Below, piece by piece: positions 5,252 to 41,630 of a DNA stretch of 64,000 nt; within the stretch, counting starts at the first letter, position 1, and each line of letters opens with the position of its first letter. The stretch spans positions 322,979-386,978 of the forward strand of contig CP064975.1 in NCBI GenBank assembly GCA_016699425.1, written 5' to 3'. Below the pieces are notes generated by a model that saw nothing but the letters and a program-made list of their open reading frames with translations, did not search any database and was not told the DNA's origin. The DNA comes from Candidatus Moraniibacteriota bacterium. GTDB taxonomy: Bacteria > Patescibacteriota > Minisyncoccia > Moranbacterales > UBA1568. The position numbers and the translations under genes are program-made.

Positions 5252-6688
5252 ATGAGAAGCCAGCGCGGGAGTGCGCTCGTCTACGGTCTCATCATTATGG
5301 CCGTGGTGCAGATCATTCTCGTGTCCATCATCCAATTCGTCACCTCCAACATTAAGTACTCGCTCCAGATCCGCTCGCGTGAGCAGTCGATCCAAATTGC
5401 CGAAGCAGGGATCGATTTCTATCGTTGGTATCTGGCGCACAATGTCGAAGGGAAGACGGCCTCGCAGATCCAGGCGTTCTGGACGAGCGGAACCGCCTAT
5501 GGAGTGGGGACCCCGTACGAACATGATTACTCGGATCCATCGGGCGGAGTGGTTGGACGGTATCGTCTGGAAGTGACGCCGCCGACCACGGGATCGACTA
5601 TTGCGATTGTGAAGTCCACCGCCTGGACTTATCGGTATCCGGATCTGGTCCGCGTCCTCCAAGTCCGGCTCAGGCGGCCGTCTTGGAGTGAGAGTGCTGT
5701 CTTGGCGAATGACTTCATGCGTTTTGGGGCAGGCACCGAAGTATTCGGGAAAATTCACTCGAATGTCGGAATCCGCTTTGATGGTGTTGCCCACAATGTC
5801 ATCACGAGTGCAGTTACCGATTACAATGACCCGGACCATACCGGCGGCAATGAGTTCGGGGTGCATACCCATGATTCACCGACGGATCCCTTGCCCCCGG
5901 CTGCTGTCCCGGCTCGAACGGATGTCTTCGAGGCAGGCCGACAGTTTCCGGTAGCCACGATCGATTTCAACGGCGTCTTGGGCGACCTCAGTCTGATGAA
6001 GACAGCGGCTCAGGGAACAGGGTCGTATTACAATGGTACGGGCGCGAATAATCTCGGGACGCGGATCATTTTGAAATCCAACGGAACATACGATACGTGT
6101 AAAGTGAACACGTATAACACGAGTTATTCGATAACGAGGTATACCCGGAACAGCGGGAGTGGTACGTGTAACTCATGTTCCGGGCTCTGTCTCAGCAATC
6201 ATTCGATACCCGATGATGGAGTGATATTTGTCGAGGACAATGCCTGGGTGGAGGGGACGATCAATGACCGGAAGGTGACGATCGCGGCGGCAGATCTTTT
6301 GGGCGGACCGGCTCCATCGGTCTATATCCTGAACGATATTCGGTATACGAATACTGATGGGCGCGACATCATTGGCATCGTTGGTCAGAACAATATCGAA
6401 ATCGCCTGGGCGAGTGAGAACGACCTCCGGATCGATGCCGCACTCTTGGCGCAACAGGGGCGAGTCGGTCGTGAACACTACGTCGATAAGGGCTACTCGC
6501 CCGACTCGAAATCTGTCATCACTGTGTACGGTGCCATCGCGACCAATCTTCGCTACGGTTTTGCCTGGACCGATGGAACGGGCTATACGACGCGCAACCT
6601 GTACTACGATAACAACCTCTTGTACTACCCGCCACCGTATTTTCCGACAGGGACACAGTACGAGCTCGATCTCTGGGAAGAATTGTAG
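5252..6688 (+). CDS. PilX-like minor-pilin N-terminal domain protein
   Basis: MRSQRGSALVYGLIIMAVV resembles the PilX N-terminus M(K)RQRGAALV. Start chosen at ORF residue 20 to avoid overlapping the upstream stop. The large Gly/Thr/Asn-rich C-terminal region is extracellular-like. Confidence 0.5.
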   Translation: MRSQRGSALVYGLIIMAVVQIILVSIIQFVTSNIKYSLQIRSREQSIQIAEAGIDFYRWYLAHNVEGKTASQIQAFWTSGTAYGVGTPYEHDYSDPSGGVVGRYRLEVTPPTTGSTIAIVKSTAWTYRYPDLVRVLQVRLRRPSWSESAVLANDFMRFGAGTEVFGKIHSNVGIRFDGVAHNVITSAVTDYNDPDHTGGNEFGVHTHDSPTDPLPPAAVPARTDVFEAGRQFPVATIDFNGVLGDLSLMKTAAQGTGSYYNGTGANNLGTRIILKSNGTYDTCKVNTYNTSYSITRYTRNSGSGTCNSCSGLCLSNHSIPDDGVIFVEDNAWVEGTINDRKVTIAAADLLGGPAPSVYILNDIRYTNTDGRDIIGIVGQNNIEIAWASENDLRIDAALLAQQGRVGREHYVDKGYSPDSKSVITVYGAIATNLRYGFAWTDGTGYTTRNLYYDNNLLYYPPPYFPTGTQYELDLWEEL

Positions 6689-34320: not shown

Positions 34321-35472
34321 ATGAAGATCGGCATCGATGCGCGTTTCTATGGATCGCTTGGCAAGGGGCTGGGACGGTACACCGAAAAACTCATCACGTA
34401 TCTCGAACAGATCCCCGAGGATACAAATACCTATGTGGTGTTTCTCCGGCGCGAAAACTTTGCGGAGTATCAGCCGGCGAACTCGCGCTTCGAAAAGAGA
34501 GTAGCGGACTATTCTTGGTACGGCTGGCAGGAGCAGTTTCGGTTCCCATGGCTTCTCTGGCGCTTTCACTTCGATCTCATCCACTTCCCGCAGTTCAAGG
34601 TTCCGATTTTTGTCCCGGCGCCGTTCGTGGTCACGCTGCATGACCTGATTCTGCTCCATTATCCGACGGTCAAGGCGAGTGAACTCTCTCCATTTCTCTA
34701 TTGGCTGAAGTACCTCATCTATCGTGTGGTCATCGCGCTCGCGGTAAGGCGGGCGCGAGCGATCATTACCGTCTCGCGTTTCACCCGATCCGATATCGAA
34801 TCCGTCTTCCCGCAGGCTCGGAGCAAGACCTTTACGACACTCGAGGCGGCTGATCCCTACTGCGCGTGGATGCATCCGCACGCTGAGCGAGCATTCCTCC
34901 AGTCGCAAGGACTCGTCTCGCTGTCCGATCCGGCGGCGGGGATCACTCCGTATGTGTTGTACGTAGGCAATGCCTACCCGCACAAGAATCTCCCGCTCTT
35001 GCTCCGAGTCGCTCCGAGATTTCCGGATATGCTCTTCCTTTGCGTCGGCCGAGAGGATTACTTCTATCGCACGTTTCGCGAGCAAGTGGCCGCTGCGGGG
35101 ATAGGGAACATTCGCTTCACGGGCTATGTCGATGATCGCTCGCTCGGAGTGCTGTATCGTCGGGCGAGAGCCTATTTCTTCCCATCGCTCTACGAAGGTT
35201 TCGGATTGCCGGGACTGGAGGCGATGAATGTCGGGACGCCGGTGATCGCCGCGCGGGCGGGGTCATTGCCTGAGATCTACGGTGAAGCGGCCCGCTACTT
35301 CGATCCAACCGATCTGACTGCTTGTGAGACGGCCTTGCGGAACGCACTTCAGTCAGAGGAGCGGGACCAGTACCGGGTGGCGGGGTTTGCTCGGGTGGCC
35401 CAGTTCTCTTGGCAGCGCATGGCGCGAGAGACGCTCCAGCTTTACGGAACCATCCCAACAAGGCGATACTAA
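34321..35472 (+). CDS. GT4-family glycosyltransferase
   Basis: C-terminal GT1/GT4 motif EGFGLPGLEAMNVGTPVIA... Confidence 0.8.
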   Translation: MKIGIDARFYGSLGKGLGRYTEKLITYLEQIPEDTNTYVVFLRRENFAEYQPANSRFEKRVADYSWYGWQEQFRFPWLLWRFHFDLIHFPQFKVPIFVPAPFVVTLHDLILLHYPTVKASELSPFLYWLKYLIYRVVIALAVRRARAIITVSRFTRSDIESVFPQARSKTFTTLEAADPYCAWMHPHAERAFLQSQGLVSLSDPAAGITPYVLYVGNAYPHKNLPLLLRVAPRFPDMLFLCVGREDYFYRTFREQVAAAGIGNIRFTGYVDDRSLGVLYRRARAYFFPSLYEGFGLPGLEAMNVGTPVIAARAGSLPEIYGEAARYFDPTDLTACETALRNALQSEERDQYRVAGFARVAQFSWQRMARETLQLYGTIPTRRY

Positions 35473-37571
35473 GGGAAGTCTATGCGAGATATCCGACGCA
35501 ATATCCGTTATCCAAGAGATGCGGCACTCCCGAGGCCAGTTGGATTGAGTTCGCCTCGTCCGATTCATTCGCCACCGGAGCGACCCACCCCCGATCAATT
35601 CGGGGATATCAGCGAAATGGGCGTTATCGACTCCTCATTTATCTTTTGGTTCTCTTGGGAGGATTGGGGATTGCTTCGATCTGGCTTCGGCAGGCGATCG
35701 TCACGCTGGGCACATCCGCCGTCGCCGAAACGAAGCTCGCCGTGATGAGCGCTCGGCAAGGGAATCTCGAGGCCAGCCGGGAAGAACTCAGTCGGGCGGA
35801 ACGGGATTTCTCCCGCGGGGCGCGTTGGCTCCGACCGTTCGCCTGGCTGCCGCATTCATTCGGACGAATTCCGGGATTCGCTCACGGTATATCGGCAGAG
35901 GCGCTCTTCAGTGCGGGTCGCGAGGGGACCCGGGCAGCGTTACCGATTCTTTCGGTGTTCCCTTCTATCCTCGATGTGCCCGATACCCCGAGTGATGTCG
36001 CGTCGCTCATCGATATCCTGGATCATTCGGCTTTGGCCGCGACCGAAGCGCACACTCATCTCCAGATGGTTCAACAGGCATTTGATCGAGTGCAACTCAG
36101 TGCGCTACCGGAAATTTACCGAGACGATTTCTCGCGCGTGCGTGACGTCGTCCCGATTGCGGTCGCTCTATTGGACGGCTATGCAGAACATCAGGCGCTC
36201 TTCCGGGAACTGCTCGGCGCCAACGGGCCACGAGTGTACCTATTCCTTTTCCAGAATAATCAGGAGCTCCGTGCGACGGGCGGATTCATCGGCAGTTATG
36301 CGCTCTTGGATGTGAGTCAGGGCCGCATCCGTCGTTTCTTCGTCGATGGTATTTTCAATCCAGATGGCCAATTGAAGGAGAATATCGTGCCGCCGAAGCC
36401 GATTCAGAAAATCAGTGCCGGTTGGAGCCTGCATGATAGCAACTGGTTTCCCAACTTCCCAACCTCGGCCGAAAAAGCAATCTTTTTCTACGAGAAAACA
36501 GGTGGTCCGACGGTGGACGGCATTATCACGCTGACGCCGGAAGTGTTGGGACGCATCCTCGAGATCGTCGGTCCGGTCACACTCCCGGAATACGGGGTCA
36601 CAGTTGAGACTGAGAACTTTATGCCGATCATTCAGGAAGAAGTCGAAGTGAAGTACGACAAGGAAGAAAATGAACCCAAGCGCATCCTGGGCGACCTCAC
36701 CGAGGCATTACTCCGGCGCTTCCTCTCCTTCGATCATCCGGAAGAAACCTGGGGATTGGGCACGACGCTCGCCACACTTCTGAACGAGAAGCATATTCTC
36801 CTGTATTCTCGGCACCCGGATGTCCAGGCGCTCATCAGCGGTGCTGGCTGGTCGGGAGAGGTACTGGCCACAGCGCATGACTATCTCTCGGTCATCCATA
36901 CCAATATCAATGGGTACAAGACCGATGGCGTCATCAAAGAGACTATCAGCCACGAGGCAAATATCGAAGCAGATGGCACCGTCCGCGACACGGTCTCTAT
37001 CACGCGCCAGCATCAGGGAGGCAACACGGCGTACGAGTGGTGGAACAAGGTGAATGCTGACTATTGTCGAGTCTATGTCCCCAAGGGTTCGACGCTCATC
37101 TCGGCTGAGGGGATGACACGGGAATTTCCTGAAGCGCCACTCGACTATCTCGCCCTCGGTTTTCGCCGGGATCCGGATATCGTGAGTGAAGAGGAAGGGA
37201 CCGTCATTGATGAAACGAGTGGCACCCGGATATCGGAGGATGCGGGTAAGACCGTCTTTGGGAACTGGGTGTATGTGAGCCCAGGCGAATCCGTCACGGT
37301 CCGCTATGTCTATGAATTGCCATTTCGAGTCGCGCTCGAAACGGGCATTGACACTCCGGCGACAGCGTATGCTGCGCTGTATCAGAAGCAATCTGGCACA
37401 GAAGGTACCGCGCTTATGGCGACGATCCGCTATCCGGAGTTGCTCCGGCCGGTTTGGCAGACCCCGGGAAATTTGGTACCGTACCAGCGGGTCTTCGAAA
37501 CGAAACAAATACTCGATAAAGACTTCTATTGGGGGGCTGTTTTCGGTCAAAAGAACTTGAACGGGGAGTGA
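35409..37571 (+). CDS. DUF4012-like membrane-anchored extracytoplasmic protein
   Basis: One TM (YRLLIYLLVLLGGLGIASIW), coiled-coil, then YLFLFQNNQELRATGGFIGSYALLD, which I recall as the DUF4012 core. The only in-frame ATG, at 35409, overlaps the glycosyltransferase by 64 nt, so the true start is uncertain. Confidence 0.55.
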   Translation: MAAHGARDAPALRNHPNKAILREVYARYPTQYPLSKRCGTPEASWIEFASSDSFATGATHPRSIRGYQRNGRYRLLIYLLVLLGGLGIASIWLRQAIVTLGTSAVAETKLAVMSARQGNLEASREELSRAERDFSRGARWLRPFAWLPHSFGRIPGFAHGISAEALFSAGREGTRAALPILSVFPSILDVPDTPSDVASLIDILDHSALAATEAHTHLQMVQQAFDRVQLSALPEIYRDDFSRVRDVVPIAVALLDGYAEHQALFRELLGANGPRVYLFLFQNNQELRATGGFIGSYALLDVSQGRIRRFFVDGIFNPDGQLKENIVPPKPIQKISAGWSLHDSNWFPNFPTSAEKAIFFYEKTGGPTVDGIITLTPEVLGRILEIVGPVTLPEYGVTVETENFMPIIQEEVEVKYDKEENEPKRILGDLTEALLRRFLSFDHPEETWGLGTTLATLLNEKHILLYSRHPDVQALISGAGWSGEVLATAHDYLSVIHTNINGYKTDGVIKETISHEANIEADGTVRDTVSITRQHQGGNTAYEWWNKVNADYCRVYVPKGSTLISAEGMTREFPEAPLDYLALGFRRDPDIVSEEEGTVIDETSGTRISEDAGKTVFGNWVYVSPGESVTVRYVYELPFRVALETGIDTPATAYAALYQKQSGTEGTALMATIRYPELLRPVWQTPGNLVPYQRVFETKQILDKDFYWGAVFGQKNLNGE

Positions 37572-37577
37572 TATTTC

Positions 37578-39239
37578 TTGCACGCGATGCGAATGCTACA
37601 GCGATTTTTTCAGTGGAGCGGGCGGCCAATCGAGACTCTCGGGGGCGCCGCTTTTATCATTGCTTTGGCTGGGGTCGCGAGCCGGGTGCTTGGTTTCATC
37701 CGGGACCGCTTGCTGGCTTCTTCGTTCGGGGCGGGTGATGTCTTGGACGCGTACTATGCCGCCTTTCGGCTACCGGATCTTGTCTATGGTCTCCTGGTGC
37801 TCGGGGCGCTGTCGGCAGCTTTCATCCCGGTCTTCACCGGACTCATGGCGCATGGGGAGAAGGCAAAGGCCTGGCGCTTGGTGCAAGGCGCGCTGCAATG
37901 GCTCACCGTGATCCTCGGCGGAGCCGCGGTTGTGGGCATCCTGTTCGCGGACCAGCTTGCGGCTTGGATCGCGCCCGGATTCTCACCCGAAAAACAAACG
38001 CTCGTCGCCCAGCTGACGCGCATTATGCTTTTTTCGCCTGTTTTCCTCTCGATTTCCGCGGTTGTGGGTGGCGTACTTGTTTCTTGTAAGCAATTTCTGA
38101 CCTACTCGTTCGCGCCGGTCTTCTACAATCTTGGCATCATCTTCGGTATCCTGGTTCTGTATCCAGTCCTGGGCCCGGCTGGTCTTGCGGTGGGGGTCGT
38201 TATCGGATCGCTCCTCCACGCTTTGGTCCAGTTTCCAGCCTTTTGGCGGAGCGGCTATCATTTATCATTTCTTCCGTTTCGGGCGAGCCTGCAAGACCCG
38301 GCACTCCGTCAGGTGGTGCGGCTCATGATCCCTCGCTCGCTCGCCATGGCCGTGAATCAATTCGGCCTCGTGATCGTCACAGTCTTTTCTTCCACGCTTG
38401 CTTCTGGCAGTCTGGCGGCCTTCACACTGGCTATCAATATCCAGAGCGTCCCACTTGGCCTCTTCGGCATCGCGTTCGCCCTCGCGTCGTTTCCGGTTCT
38501 CTCGACGCTTGCTGCCAAGCAGGATCATGAAGAATTCTTCACGGTCCTGGTCAGAACAACCCAACGCATCCTCTACTTCGTGCTCCCGTTGTCATTTCTC
38601 TTCATCATTTTCCGCGCGGAAATCGTCCGCATTGTGCTCGGGACTGGTGCCTTCAACTGGGAAGACACCATTGTGACCTTCACCGTGCTTGGCTGGCTGT
38701 CGATTTCGCTTTTCGCGCAGAGTCTCATCCTGCTGTTCGTGCGGGCCTTCTTCGCGCTTCAGGATACCAAGACCCCGCTCTTTGCCGCTCTGTTTTCCGA
38801 GGTTATTCATCTTGCGCTCATTCCCTTCCTCCTTCCGTATTTTGCTGTGGCCGGGATCGCGATGGCCTTCTCGGTCGGTGCGATTGTCAATGTCATTATC
38901 CTCTATTGGTCACTAAGGCAGCGTGTGTCGGTCTGGCGCGACTGGGAGATGATTTCTGGTATGCTGCGGATTGCAGGTATCGCCCTCGTCGCGGCTGCCG
39001 TGGCGCAGTTTTCCAAGGGCATCTTTGCGCTCACTATCGGCCGCCTCGATACCTTTGTCGAAGTCGCCGTAAAGCTCGGGGTCGGCGTCCTCATCGGTGG
39101 GGCGACCTATATCGCACTGTCGGCCTATTTTGCTCTGCCGGAATACCGGCAAGTGAAACGCTTCATTTGGTGTCGGCTTCTCCGCCGTCCCGAAACTATC
39201 GTCCTCACTGAGGATCACCCGGAACAGGGCGATTGGTAG
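37578..39239 (+). CDS. murJ: Lipid II flippase MurJ
   Basis: MviN/MurJ N-terminus ...VLGFIRDRLLASSFGAGDVLDAYYAAFRLPDL..., about 14 TM. Confidence 0.85.
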   Translation: MHAMRMLQRFFQWSGRPIETLGGAAFIIALAGVASRVLGFIRDRLLASSFGAGDVLDAYYAAFRLPDLVYGLLVLGALSAAFIPVFTGLMAHGEKAKAWRLVQGALQWLTVILGGAAVVGILFADQLAAWIAPGFSPEKQTLVAQLTRIMLFSPVFLSISAVVGGVLVSCKQFLTYSFAPVFYNLGIIFGILVLYPVLGPAGLAVGVVIGSLLHALVQFPAFWRSGYHLSFLPFRASLQDPALRQVVRLMIPRSLAMAVNQFGLVIVTVFSSTLASGSLAAFTLAINIQSVPLGLFGIAFALASFPVLSTLAAKQDHEEFFTVLVRTTQRILYFVLPLSFLFIIFRAEIVRIVLGTGAFNWEDTIVTFTVLGWLSISLFAQSLILLFVRAFFALQDTKTPLFAALFSEVIHLALIPFLLPYFAVAGIAMAFSVGAIVNVIILYWSLRQRVSVWRDWEMISGMLRIAGIALVAAAVAQFSKGIFALTIGRLDTFVEVAVKLGVGVLIGGATYIALSAYFALPEYRQVKRFIWCRLLRRPETIVLTEDHPEQGDW

Positions 39240-39261
39240 GCGGCCGATCCATCAGATAGAA

Positions 39262-39295
39262 GAAAAGCCGTAGCGGGTTCGCGTACGGCTTGGGT
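39262..39295 (-). terminator. Rho-independent terminator on minus strand (GCCGUA-CGCG-AACC-CGC-UACGGC + UUUUCUUCU)
   Basis: Follows the stop of the small zinc-ribbon ORF. Convergent with the murJ 3' end. Confidence 0.55.
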
Positions 39296-39325
39296 GGGGC
39301 GGTGGCCCCGGGGAGGGATCGGGCT

Positions 39326-39571
39326 TCAGTCACCCGCATCCCACAGTTGACCCACTGCGCGTGAGCGAGGGTTTCGGGAGGTGGCCGCCCAACCCCGCTC
39401 GGGTGGTAGAGTGGTAATGATCACTGGTTGCGAAGTCTGGCAGTGAGCGCAGGTATAGTTTCGCCAGAGTGTATTTCCTCCCTCGCCTGGGGGCGCATCA
39501 GCGGGCGGGGAGATGGGGGAGAAGTGCTCGAGGGGTGTCCTACAATTTTTACATAAGAGCAGATCGCTCAT
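39326..39571 (-). CDS. Small zinc-ribbon protein (81 aa), hypothetical
   Basis: Strong SD AAGGAAAGGA 5 nt before the ATG. CxxC...(30)...CxHC cysteine pairs. Own terminator. Proline/Gly-rich middle makes it low-complexity, so it could instead be a non-coding region. Confidence 0.35.
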   Translation of the reverse strand: MSDLLLCKNCRTPLEHFSPISPPADAPPGEGGNTLWRNYTCAHCQTSQPVIITTLPPERGWAATSRNPRSRAVGQLWDAGD

Positions 39572-39605
39572 GATAGTCCTTTCCTTCGGTGGTTGTTAAA
39601 GGGCG

Positions 39606-39640
39606 AAAACAAAAAACCGGCTCGGTGGAGAGTCGGTTCC
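39606..39640 (-). promoter_or_regulatory. Terminator-like hairpin + U-tract in the 5' leader of the zinc-ribbon ORF (candidate attenuator/riboswitch expression platform)
   Basis: Minus-strand AACCGaCUC-uccacc-GAGcCGGUU + UUUUUUGUUUU directly upstream of the RBS. An upstream CCUCGGGG can alternatively pair with the CACCGAGCC right arm. Confidence 0.4.
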
Positions 39641-39748
39641 TGCATTGTAACCCCGAGGCTACAAGACAGAAATCAACCCTTCACCGGCGAACCGGAAAAG
39701 AAACACCAGAAAAAGAAACGGTTGAAGCGTGTCGGTAACATATCCATA

Positions 39749-39778
39749 CCCTACACGCCACGGCACCCTCTGTCAACT
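39749..39778 (-). promoter_or_regulatory. Candidate minus-strand promoter TTGACA-18-TAGGGT feeding the structured leader
   Basis: Perfect -35, weaker -10. Divergent from lepA. Confidence 0.3.
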
Positions 39779-39821
39779 TGCCTCGCTGGCCGATTTCCTC
39801 TACCGTAGACGAACCAAGACT

Positions 39822-41630
39822 ATGCGTCAGGAACACATCCGCAATTTCTGCATCATCGCCCATATTGACCATGGCAAGTCGACCCTGGCCGATCGCCTCT
39901 TGGAGCTGACCAAGACGGTCGAGCAGCGCAAGATGAAGGAACAGCTCCTCGATCAGATGGATCTGGAGCGCGAGCGTGGCATCACCATCAAGCTGCAGCC
40001 GGTCCAGATGAAGTACACCTACGAGGGGAACGAATACCACCTCAACCTCATCGATACGCCGGGCCATGTTGATTTTCATTACGAGGTGTCTCGGTCGCTC
40101 GCGGCGGTCGAGGGCGCGATCCTCCTCGTCGATGCGACCAAGGGTGTGCAGGCTCAAACCTTGGCCAATCTCTATCTCGCGATCGAGCAGGGGCTCGAGA
40201 TCGTCCCAGTCGTGAACAAAATCGATCTGCCGAATGCCGAGGTGGAGAAAGCGAAGAATGAAATCATCCACCTCATCGGTTGTCCCGAAACAGACATCCT
40301 GCTCGCGTCCGGCAAGACGGGCCTTGGCGTCCAAGAGGTGCTCGAGCGTGTCATCGAGCGTGTCCCGGCGCCGGTGGGGGACATCGAGCAGCCGCTCCGG
40401 GCACTCATCTTTGATTCAGTGTATGACACGTACAAGGGCGTCGTAGCCTTTGTCCGCGTCGTCGACGGGACCGTGAAGCGCGACGATGTACTCTCGATGC
40501 TTGGGACATCACAGGTATCCGTCACTGTCGAAGTCGGACATTTTGCGCCAGCACTCACGCCTCAACCAGCGCTTCGAGCGGGTGATATCGGCTATATCGC
40601 GACCGGACTGAAAGATGTCGCCCACTGCCGGGTCGGCGATACGATCACGCTCGAAAATCGGCATCGTGATGCGAGCGCCGTCTCACCACTGCCGGGTTAT
40701 CGCGAGATCAAGCCGGCCGTGTATGCGAGTCTGTATCCGACGGATGGTGAGGATTATGCTTTCATGCGCGATGCGCTCGACAAGCTGAAGTTGAATGACG
40801 CCGCTTTCACGTTCGAGCCCGAGAGCAATCAGGCGCTGGGCCGGGGGTTTCGCTGTGGCTTCCTCGGCCTCCTCCACCTGGAGATCATCCAGGCTAGGCT
40901 GGAACGTGAATTCGAGCTCGTCCCAACCATCACGACCCCCTCGGTCGTCTACGAGCTCCAGCTGTACGGCCAATCCGCGCGCGTGCCACTCTTTTCGCCA
41001 TCGGACATGCCGGATCCGGCGGGGATCGATACTATCTACGAGCCGTATGTCGCGCTCTCCATCATCACGCCGGGCGAATACCTCGGCAATGTGATGCAAC
41101 TCGCTCAGTCGATCCGCTCCGAGTACAAGAACACCGAGTATATCGACGAGGGCCGGGTCATTATTTCGTTCGAGGCGCCGCTTATGGACGTGATTGTGAA
41201 TTTCCACGACGAGCTGAAGAGCGCATCATCAGGGTATGCCTCGATGAACTATGAGCCGATCGGCTATCGGCCGAGCGATGTAGTGAAGCTCGATATCCTC
41301 GTCGCTGGGGACAAGGTCGAGGCATTTTCACGCATGGTGCCAGCCCGGATGGCTCACCTGGAAGGCAAGAAGACTGTCGAACGGCTGAAAGAAGTCTTGC
41401 CGCGGCAGGCCTTTGCGGTCGCACTCCAGGCGGCCATCGGGGCCAAGGTTATCGCCCGTGAGACGATCTCGGCGTTTCGGAAAGACGTGACGGGCTACAT
41501 GTATGGCGGCGACTTCAGTCGTAAGAAGAAATTGCTCGAGAAGCAGAAAGCCGGCAAGAAGCGGATGAAGGAAACCGGCCGCGTCACCATCCCGCCCAAA
41601 GCCTTCCTCGAAATCTTGAAGAACAAATAA
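39822..41630 (+). CDS. lepA: Elongation factor 4 (LepA)
   Basis: IRNFCIIAHIDHGKSTLADRLL G1 motif, DTPGHVDF, NKIDL, LepA C-terminal domain. Confidence 0.9.
   Translation: MRQEHIRNFCIIAHIDHGKSTLADRLLELTKTVEQRKMKEQLLDQMDLERERGITIKLQPVQMKYTYEGNEYHLNLIDTPGHVDFHYEVSRSLAAVEGAILLVDATKGVQAQTLANLYLAIEQGLEIVPVVNKIDLPNAEVEKAKNEIIHLIGCPETDILLASGKTGLGVQEVLERVIERVPAPVGDIEQPLRALIFDSVYDTYKGVVAFVRVVDGTVKRDDVLSMLGTSQVSVTVEVGHFAPALTPQPALRAGDIGYIATGLKDVAHCRVGDTITLENRHRDASAVSPLPGYREIKPAVYASLYPTDGEDYAFMRDALDKLKLNDAAFTFEPESNQALGRGFRCGFLGLLHLEIIQARLEREFELVPTITTPSVVYELQLYGQSARVPLFSPSDMPDPAGIDTIYEPYVALSIITPGEYLGNVMQLAQSIRSEYKNTEYIDEGRVIISFEAPLMDVIVNFHDELKSASSGYASMNYEPIGYRPSDVVKLDILVAGDKVEAFSRMVPARMAHLEGKKTVERLKEVLPRQAFAVALQAAIGAKVIARETISAFRKDVTGYMYGGDFSRKKKLLEKQKAGKKRMKETGRVTIPPKAFLEILKNK

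Follow-up and report, generated by a model that had tools for sequence, protein, structure and literature searches.

What occupies the 582 bp that separate murJ from lepA in a tightly packed part of a Candidatus Moraniibacteriota genome? The DNA in question is a stretch of 64,000 nucleotides (nt) of contig CP064975.1 (assembly GCA_016699425.1, forward strand, positions 322,979 to 386,978), referred to here as the window, whose own numbering is used for all features. A sequence-only reading of the window had proposed that the gap holds either a tiny zinc-ribbon protein under ligand or attenuation control or an RNA of ~350 nt with an incidental open reading frame (ORF). The region is a self-contained antisense mini-gene, not an intergenic leader of lepA, and comparison of diverged copies demonstrates both a protein gene under purifying selection and a leader hairpin conserved with covariation. 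Our favored interpretation, to which we assign a probability of roughly 55%, is that of a lineage-restricted small-protein gene with a cis-acting leader hairpin that limits expression via premature termination.

An insertion confined to four lineages

With murJ ending at 39239 and lepA starting at 39822, both on the plus strand, the gap is a clear outlier because neighboring plus-strand genes overlap or sit ~5 to 95 bp apart, just as the sequence-only reading had noticed. The murJ neighborhoods of relatives were fetched via MurJ homologues and are designated here as numbered loci (L001 and so on); the nearest public contig found for the window is JBATNG010000014.1 (L001), from a metagenome-assembled genome. 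L002 and L003 trace to wastewater sequencing runs (ERR8482637 and ERR712382) and L013 to Joint Genome Institute (JGI) dataset 3300045394. Homologous content, in gaps of 582 to 635 bp, is restricted to four lineages (window/L002/L003, L001/L010, L012, and L013/L014), and these are monophyletic in the MurJ tree (182 of 200 bootstraps). In L011, L004, L005, and L007, whose MurJ proteins are 82, 80, 78, and 74% identical to that of the window, murJ and lepA are 76, 79, 46, and 88 bp apart, respectively. These short gaps can be aligned neither to the window nor to one another.

The comparison establishes an insertion, for which the simplest history would be a single event in the common ancestor of the four Moraniibacteriota lineages, at a junction that is variable in the phylum. 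Since the region is missing in the sister lineages L004, L005, L007, and L011, it cannot count as a housekeeping feature of the locus, and this clade-specific character had escaped the sequence-only reading. Terminal repeats or target duplications could not be defined because the gaps of the relatives are not alignable. Viral contigs, phage records, and plasmids yielded no match to the cassette, and neither did scans of JGI metagenomes, in which the patterns used were too window-specific for copies of the L013 type.

A zinc-ribbon protein gene under purifying selection

The 81-amino-acid (aa) ORF with its C7xxC10 and C41xxC44 pairs, already described from the window alone, proves to be a real protein gene under purifying selection when diverged copies are compared codon by codon. 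The proportion of synonymous differences (pS) exceeds that of nonsynonymous differences (pN) between the window and L012 (pS, 0.645; pN, 0.351; ratio of nonsynonymous to synonymous rates [dN/dS], 0.32; Fisher P = 9.3e-5), between the window and L013 (0.614, 0.282, 0.28, and 6.3e-6, respectively), and between L012 and L013 (0.731, 0.383, 0.19, and 2.8e-6). Neither of the shifted frames shows an excess of pS over pN. The ORF, its Shine-Dalgarno (SD) sequence, and both CxxC knuckles are kept in lineages just 40 to 55% identical in protein, with the four cysteines invariant in all five distinct sequences. Protein length ranges from 81 to 86 aa, and the conserved motifs comprise HFSP, LWRxYTC, NP, and LW(D/E)xGD in addition to the two CxxC knuckles. 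The SD sequence AAGGAAAGGA is present, as had been read, at a conserved spacing: AGGA lies 5 to 6 nt ahead of each lineage's own start codon, including that of L012, which starts five codons further upstream.

The family is small in public data. HMMER, run exhaustively against 1.84 billion representatives, returned as homologues only P0001 and P0122, the latter a single diverged protein (47% identity; E = 6e-17) from the murJ-lepA context of L012, and at 50% identity the public protein collections contain no more than two clusters of the family. L013 has a further 81-aa homologue of 55% identity that was not called as a gene. Indeed, the intact ORF was left uncalled by the source gene callers in L010 (3200-3829) and L013 (2286-2920) and was called in L002, L003, and L012, so protein-database searches under-count the family. 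Exact-sequence look-ups did not find the ORF or the LepA of the window on record. The best Pfam scores, 14.2 and 14.5 bits from zinc-ribbon models, fall far below the cut-offs of ~27 bits; the best NCBIfam score is also sub-threshold (13 bits against 15.5), and PHROGs and PADLOC gave no family match for the 81-aa protein.

The two CxxC knuckles mark the protein as a zinc-ribbon with putative zinc binding. AlphaFold models with predicted local distance difference test scores (pLDDT) of 57 and 66 (65.6) show, with moderate confidence, a three-stranded sheet (strands 13-19, 34-41, and 47-53), with residues 1 to 55 at a pLDDT of 67 to 84 and a disordered tail. The best Foldseek match in the PDB, the Mis18 yippee domain, was not significant (E = 1.4). 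Like the small zinc-ribbon proteins of Pfam families DZR (PF12773) and Zn_ribbon_PaaD (PF23451), the protein has two CxxC knuckles ~30 residues apart and a predicted three-stranded beta sheet, but it scores 14 bits against a cut-off of 27, and its conserved tail, GWAA...NP...LWDAGD, has no counterpart there. It is neutral to acidic, which would argue against nucleic-acid binding, and it has no hydrophobic stretch. We regard it as a new tiny family of zinc-ribbon proteins and the leader hairpin as a candidate for a new cis-regulatory RNA motif, both being of known kinds.

Recombination between lineages

Across the cassette the window and L001 are ~97% identical, a level that resembles an RNA gene and instead reflects recombination. 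Relative to L001, the flanking genes are 70 to 88% identical (~80%), and positions 39200 to 39700 reach 95 to 100%; the synonymous divergence of murJ drops from 0.62 over codons 1 to 514 to 0.07 in the last 39 codons. L002 is a mosaic, with a window-like lepA, an L001-like promoter spacer, and its own cluster of changes at the murJ end. Because the block of identity runs into the synonymous sites of murJ, and given the L002 mosaic, we attribute it to a recent homologous-recombination tract, which leaves the 97% identity uninformative on constraint. Nucleotide-level selection, considered as an explanation for the identity to L001, was rejected on the same two observations. Among near-identical copies the dN/dS of the ORF spans 0.44 to 2.3 on 7 to 9 changes, and only the more distant copies revealed the ORF as real. 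Recombination mosaics are a feature of the co-occurring lineages represented by the window, L001, and L002.

A conserved hairpin in the leader

The leader that precedes the gene measures ~170 nt in the window, as the sequence-only reading had it, and 150 to 170 nt across the cassette lineages. That reading had distinguished two hairpins, one capped by UUCG and one terminator-like; both sequences are present (39695-39684 and 39636-39617), but in the minimum-energy fold they form the base of one long imperfect hairpin. Between its helices of 7, 4, 7, 7, and 8 bp lie one bulge of 3 nt and three 1x1 mismatches (A.C, A.C, and C.U), and RNAalifold yields the same structure. The hairpin core is the best-conserved segment of the cassette, at 84, 74, and 67% identity for window-L012, window-L013, and L012-L013, respectively; in the same order, the ORF has 64, 63, and 57% nucleotide identity, the 3' untranslated region (UTR) 59, 64, and 59%, and the leader from the -10 element to the core 55, 52, and 52%. 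Alignment with the relatives, the comparison that the sequence-only reading had called for, thus finds both the ORF and the leader hairpin conserved.

Pairing is conserved along with sequence. In a hand-registered alignment of four sequences, 94% of cells are standard pairs, compared to 34 to 53% in slid controls, and three pairs show compensatory double changes, the observed values being reached by 15 to 18 of 500 shuffles. The three 1x1 mismatches remain mismatched across lineages, with C.U becoming G.A in L013. G.U pairs abound in the stem, which in three of the four lineages gains 7 to 12 kcal/mol in stability when folded as minus-strand RNA; the six G.U pairs of the window leave it 12 kcal/mol weaker on the other strand, and in L012 the plus strand folds slightly more stably than the minus strand. 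The local alternative hairpin, the only one to reach the U-tract in L012, is 86% paired, with one compensatory pair. A covariance model (R1) and BLASTN found a single copy of the hairpin in the 64-kb window, none in the cassette-free loci, and no further copy in the fetched loci. Conservation of the stem together with its mismatches suggests recognition by a factor, which could be a protein, RNase III, or another RNA.

In the window the hairpin has the geometry of an intrinsic terminator: on the transcribed strand, a stable GC-rich stem-loop whose stem ends in CCGG runs directly into a U-rich tract. The tract had been given as U7 and is actually U6GU4. It abuts the hairpin in the window and L001, is kept in L012 as U4CGU4C, and is degenerate in L013 (UCUGUUCAUUC). 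An attenuator or riboswitch expression platform had also been proposed, in which CUCGG and CCGAG would pair as the alternative. This 5-bp pairing exists, but forcing it changes the energy of the leader from -62.1 to -44.7 kcal/mol, a cost of 17.4 kcal/mol that makes it uncompetitive. The nearest alternative fold (-55.3 kcal/mol; a cost of 6.8 kcal/mol) consists of the UUCG mini-hairpin and a local hairpin, CCGACUC/GAGCCGG, and likewise sets a hairpin against the U-tract. With a hairpin on the U-tract in every low-energy state of the window leader, termination is predicted throughout, and no classical switch is apparent.

Promoter-proximal intrinsic terminators act as transcription attenuators in 5' leaders, with trp, pyrBI, and the conditional terminators of Term-seq as examples. 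The cassette resembles them in placing a GC-rich hairpin and U-tract between promoter and SD sequence in a 150- to 170-nt leader. It differs in having no mutually exclusive antiterminator, conserved leader peptide, or known sensor domain, in a stem of ~34 bp that is 4 to 6 times the usual length and conserved in sequence, and in the loss of the U-tract in one lineage. The leader folds contained no mutually exclusive antiterminator of comparable stability, and a sensing device was likewise missing, with no leader peptide conserved and no T-box, PyrR, RAT, or similar family detected by Rfam.

Putative promoter and 3' terminator, and the upstream leader

Conservation across the four lineages extends to the predicted promoter, the SD sequence, and the predicted 3' terminator. 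All four lineages keep TTGACA and TAnnnT, 16 to 17 nt apart, with unrelated spacer sequences (TTGACA-17-TATGTT in L012 and TTGACA-16-TATCCT in L013). In the window both elements named by the sequence-only reading, TTGACA and TAGGGT, are present and conserved; it had counted 18 nt for the spacer, which measures 17 nt, and its coordinates shift by ~2. A consensus scanner omitted this promoter because TAGGGT matches just 3 of 6 positions. Transcription would start near A39741.

The pyrimidine tract of the 5' leader is predicted to pair with the SD sequence in the window, L001, and L013, leaving the SD sequence 68 to 90% paired. Shuffled 5' leaders nearly equal this pairing (fraction at or below native, 0.17, 0.60, and 0.06), so the predicted occlusion is not evidence of selection. 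Two candidate elements in this part of the cassette were rejected. A mini-ORF, possibly leaderless, begins at an AUG at 39747 or 39741 and runs for 22 to 24 codons to a stop within the hairpin arm; it is Phe-rich because the tract is U-rich, and leader-peptide or pyrBI-like attenuation was dismissed since neither L012 nor L013 has its AUGs or its frame. The second candidate, TTAACA-18-TATCAT (39599-39570) as an internal promoter for the ORF, has a -10 element that overlaps the start codon, which would give a transcript without the AUG, and this -10 element is not kept in L012.

At the other end of the cassette, the hairpin that had been read from the window as a clean intrinsic terminator is confirmed. 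The 91-nt stretch from 39240 to 39330 folds at -37.2 kcal/mol (z score, -5.1), and all four lineages retain a stem with a U-rich tail, in which stem positions change yet still pair. No terminators were listed by the consensus scanner because both stems of the cassette exceed its loop and bulge limits. Neither hairpin runs into a U-tract on the plus strand, so read-through from murJ to lepA should survive the insertion.

Between the promoter of the cassette and the start of lepA lies a 17-mer, GTCTACGGTAGAGGAAA, with the palindrome TCTACGGTAGA inside it. The window, L001, L002, and L012 share this 17-mer without change; L013 has TCTA-N7-TAGA beside its -35 element. A candidate promoter for lepA on the plus strand, TTGCCT-17-TACCGT, spans 39778 to 39806, and the palindromic 17-mer could be an operator shared by the divergent promoters or part of the lepA promoter.

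Table 1. Features of the murJ-lepA gap, in window coordinates
Feature	Position	Strand	Description
Whole cassette	39240..39821	-	Between murJ (+) and lepA (+), antisense to both
Palindromic 17-mer	39794..39810	-	GTCTACGGTAGAGGAAA with palindrome TCTACGGTAGA, between cassette promoter and lepA start
Predicted sigma-70-type promoter	39748..39776	-	-35 TTGACA, 39776-39771; 17-nt spacer; -10 TAGGGT, 39753-39748
Pyrimidine-rich 5' leader part	39696..39741	-	Poorly conserved
Long imperfect leader hairpin	39617..39695	-	79 nt; -44.6 kcal/mol; z score, -4.86 versus dinucleotide shuffles
Base helix H1	39695-39689 / 39623-39617	-	Part of leader hairpin
Conserved core H2-H5	39685-39624	-	Part of leader hairpin
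Loop UCGG	39656-39653	-	Caps leader hairpin
1x1 mismatches	A39681.C39628, A39673.C39636, C39665.U39644	-	In leader hairpin
U-tract U6GU4	39606..39616	-	Directly 3' of leader hairpin
Shine-Dalgarno AAGGAAAGGA	39577..39586	-	AGGA core 5 nt before AUG
81-aa zinc-ribbon ORF	39326..39571	-	C7xxC10 ... C41xxC44; C-terminal LWDAGD
Predicted intrinsic terminator of cassette	39258..39291	-	Stem 39291-39265; tail UUCUUCU
Recombination tract with L001/L010	39123..39810		~97% identity

Comparison with known RNA families

At gathering score, Rfam gave no match in the 64-kb window or in six related loci. With the threshold relaxed to E < 10 on positions 39150 to 39900, only far-sub-threshold models of microRNA precursors appeared, reflecting the shape of the hairpin. 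Two of these, mir-5985 and MIR162_2, share with it an unbranched form of ~60 to 80 nt with small internal mismatches, but they scored 24.8 and 13.9 bits against gathering scores of 100 and 103 and are eukaryotic families, so that the match is one of shape only. ARAGORN found no tRNA or transfer-messenger RNA (tmRNA) gene in the whole window, in line with the sequence-only reading, which had looked in the gap for tRNA, tmRNA, and RNase P motifs and seen none. The housekeeping RNAs considered, RNase P RNA, tmRNA, signal recognition particle (SRP) RNA, and 6S RNA, had no match in Rfam or ARAGORN, and the covariance search thus disposed of the suggestion that the region might be one of them. Nor does it hold a recognizable riboswitch aptamer, having no Rfam match, one unbranched hairpin, and an upstream leader of 52 to 55% identity. 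A literature search for structured RNAs of the candidate phyla radiation (CPR), which includes the Moraniibacteriota, turned up nothing specific.

A model for the cassette and its alternatives

In our favored interpretation, the sigma-70-type promoter would drive the 150- to 170-nt leader, the SD sequence, the zinc-ribbon gene, and the intrinsic terminator. Most transcripts would end at the leader hairpin and U-tract, keeping the small protein low; read-through transcripts would carry a partly occluded SD sequence; and a trans-acting factor that recognizes the conserved sequence and mismatches of the hairpin may modulate expression. Transcription, termination in the leader, and any regulation are what we infer from this arrangement. 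Of the regulated zinc-ribbon protein envisaged in the sequence-only reading, the protein (dN/dS, 0.19 to 0.32, in this frame only) and the conserved, covarying hairpin stand, and ligand control and a terminator/antiterminator switch fall away.

Several points weigh against limitation of expression by premature termination. Promoter, start site, and termination are each predicted. The base helix H1 takes a different form in each lineage, and L012 has none, its U-tract being touched by the local hairpin only; L013 has no convincing U-tract. The terminator is thus not uniformly conserved. The covariation comes from four sequences, with all three compensatory pairs contributed by L013 and 6 of 104 cells unpaired. 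Plain terminators do not usually have a stem so strongly conserved in sequence, a hint that this one may do something else. Occlusion of the SD sequence is no stronger than in shuffled leaders. Finally, with no antiterminator, leader peptide, or aptamer found in the leader, the model offers no route to expression of the ORF in the window.

In one alternative, the ~130-nt promoter-proximal transcript that stops at the hairpin and U-tract (39741-39606) would itself be the main product, a small RNA or a protein-binding RNA acting in trans, with the zinc-ribbon gene expressed by read-through only or serving a separate role. The hairpin is better conserved in sequence than the ORF, down to its mismatches; the window has the geometry of a strong terminator; and no mechanism of read-through is visible. 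However, the single-stranded 5' part, the expected place of a seed, is essentially unconstrained (52 to 55% identity), L013 lacks a good U-tract, and the downstream ORF and SD sequence are under selection with no conserved promoter of their own; we consider this alternative unlikely, while giving it serious thought. More doubtful is the idea that the hairpin and the zinc-ribbon protein make up an undescribed self-contained RNA-protein module, in which the sequence-conserved hairpin with its three conserved mismatches would be recognized by a factor, perhaps the zinc-ribbon protein or else an enzyme of the host, for example RNase III. Such a module might serve as an autoregulatory or an addiction- or defense-like switch, persist at a variable junction, and be carried from one CPR lineage to another by homologous recombination. 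We rate as improbable a toxin-antitoxin-like or selfish two-part module, of type I or type III style or opposed by antisense murJ-lepA read-through, that is maintained and spread by recombination. Structured toxin mRNA leaders are known from hok/sok-like type I systems, and the cassette shares with these a small lineage-restricted ORF, a long, stable, structured 5' UTR, a predicted occluded SD sequence, and the possibility of antisense transcription, as its antisense placement between co-directional genes would guarantee a potential antisense RNA. Also in its favor are the lineage-restricted insertion at a variable junction, where another lineage carries different cargo, and the recent transfer between lineages by recombination. 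The product, however, is a soluble, neutral-to-acidic zinc-ribbon protein with no hydrophobic segment, not a hydrophobic peptide, and has no similarity in PADLOC, PHROGs, or Pfam. No dedicated antisense RNA gene was identified at the cassette, and the tandem repeats typical of type III antitoxins are missing. The viral, plasmid, and phage collections hold no copies, and the phylogeny fits one ancient gain followed by vertical descent, not mobility.

Below these in probability ranks a riboswitch or another leader that senses a ligand or temperature, with the hairpin as its expression platform. A conserved structured leader does end in a terminator-like hairpin, and the U-rich pairing opposite the SD sequence, with its many G.U pairs, resembles thermometers of the fourU type; yet no Rfam family matches even at E < 10, the single unbranched hairpin offers no junction or pocket, no alternative fold is competitive, the leader sequence 5' of the hairpin lacks conservation, and the pairing of the SD sequence is no better than in shuffles. 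It is very improbable that the long palindrome acts as DNA, whether as a site of recombination or insertion or as a repeat like a miniature inverted-repeat transposable element (MITE). An imperfect palindrome with conserved unpaired bases within an inserted segment would fit, as would the slightly more stable plus-strand fold of L012, but the palindrome is single copy in the 64-kb window and in all fetched loci, where a MITE would be multi-copy. Given the unalignable gaps of the relatives, no terminal repeats or target duplications could be defined; the G.U pairs cost the stem 12 kcal/mol on the other strand, and there is no recombinase gene nearby. The chance that the cassette is a ~350-nt noncoding RNA with an incidental ORF, or a divergent housekeeping RNA, is close to nil. 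The ~97% identity between window and L001 throughout and a dN/dS of ~1 among near-identical copies had pointed that way, but the identity is that of a recombination tract, which takes in the end of murJ as well. Codon-level selection in the diverged copies (pS, 0.61 to 0.73, versus pN, 0.28 to 0.38, in its own frame only), with intact frames, conserved cysteines, and a conserved SD sequence, refutes it, and neither an Rfam match nor the close relatives, which are without the region, lend it help.

If a lineage-restricted gene with an expression-limiting leader hairpin is the correct interpretation, the cassette offers a compact example of a CPR bacterium gaining and keeping an orphan small-protein gene. 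It would have come with its own promoter, structured leader, and terminator, been placed antisense between two essential genes, and then been homogenized by recombination. Its general importance is limited by its presence in four lineages of one clade and by the lack of a link to a known pathway, and almost no regulation has been studied in these organisms.

Other features of the murJ-lepA locus

The surroundings of the cassette are stable among relatives, in which the order glycosyltransferase, DUF4012 protein, murJ, lepA, small ORF, thioredoxin, YjbQ, and YceG is conserved. The gene for the DUF4012 protein, of 560 to 720 aa with a variable N-terminal region, lies directly upstream of murJ in all relatives (window, 35409-37571, with equivalents in L004 to L011).

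In L008 and L009, whose MurJ proteins are 70% identical to that of the window, the murJ-lepA junction holds a different insert of ~1 kb (L008, 5160-6155; L009, 5160-5303). The insert in L008 has a near-consensus promoter, TTGACA-17-TATAAT, and a plus-strand ORF of 252 aa (5263-6021) with no match in Pfam, PHROGs, PADLOC, or NCBIfam; its place in the source annotation is taken by an antisense ORF of 263 aa. That the cassette is a remnant of this larger insert was considered and rejected, there being no DNA or protein similarity between them. On these inserts, the murJ-lepA junction looks like a hotspot for orphan cargo. In two cassette-free loci, L004 (5180-5195) and L011 (4680-4700), an extended -10-like sequence, TGCTACAAT, is shared ~50 nt upstream of lepA, which suggests that lepA may have its own promoter even where it abuts murJ.

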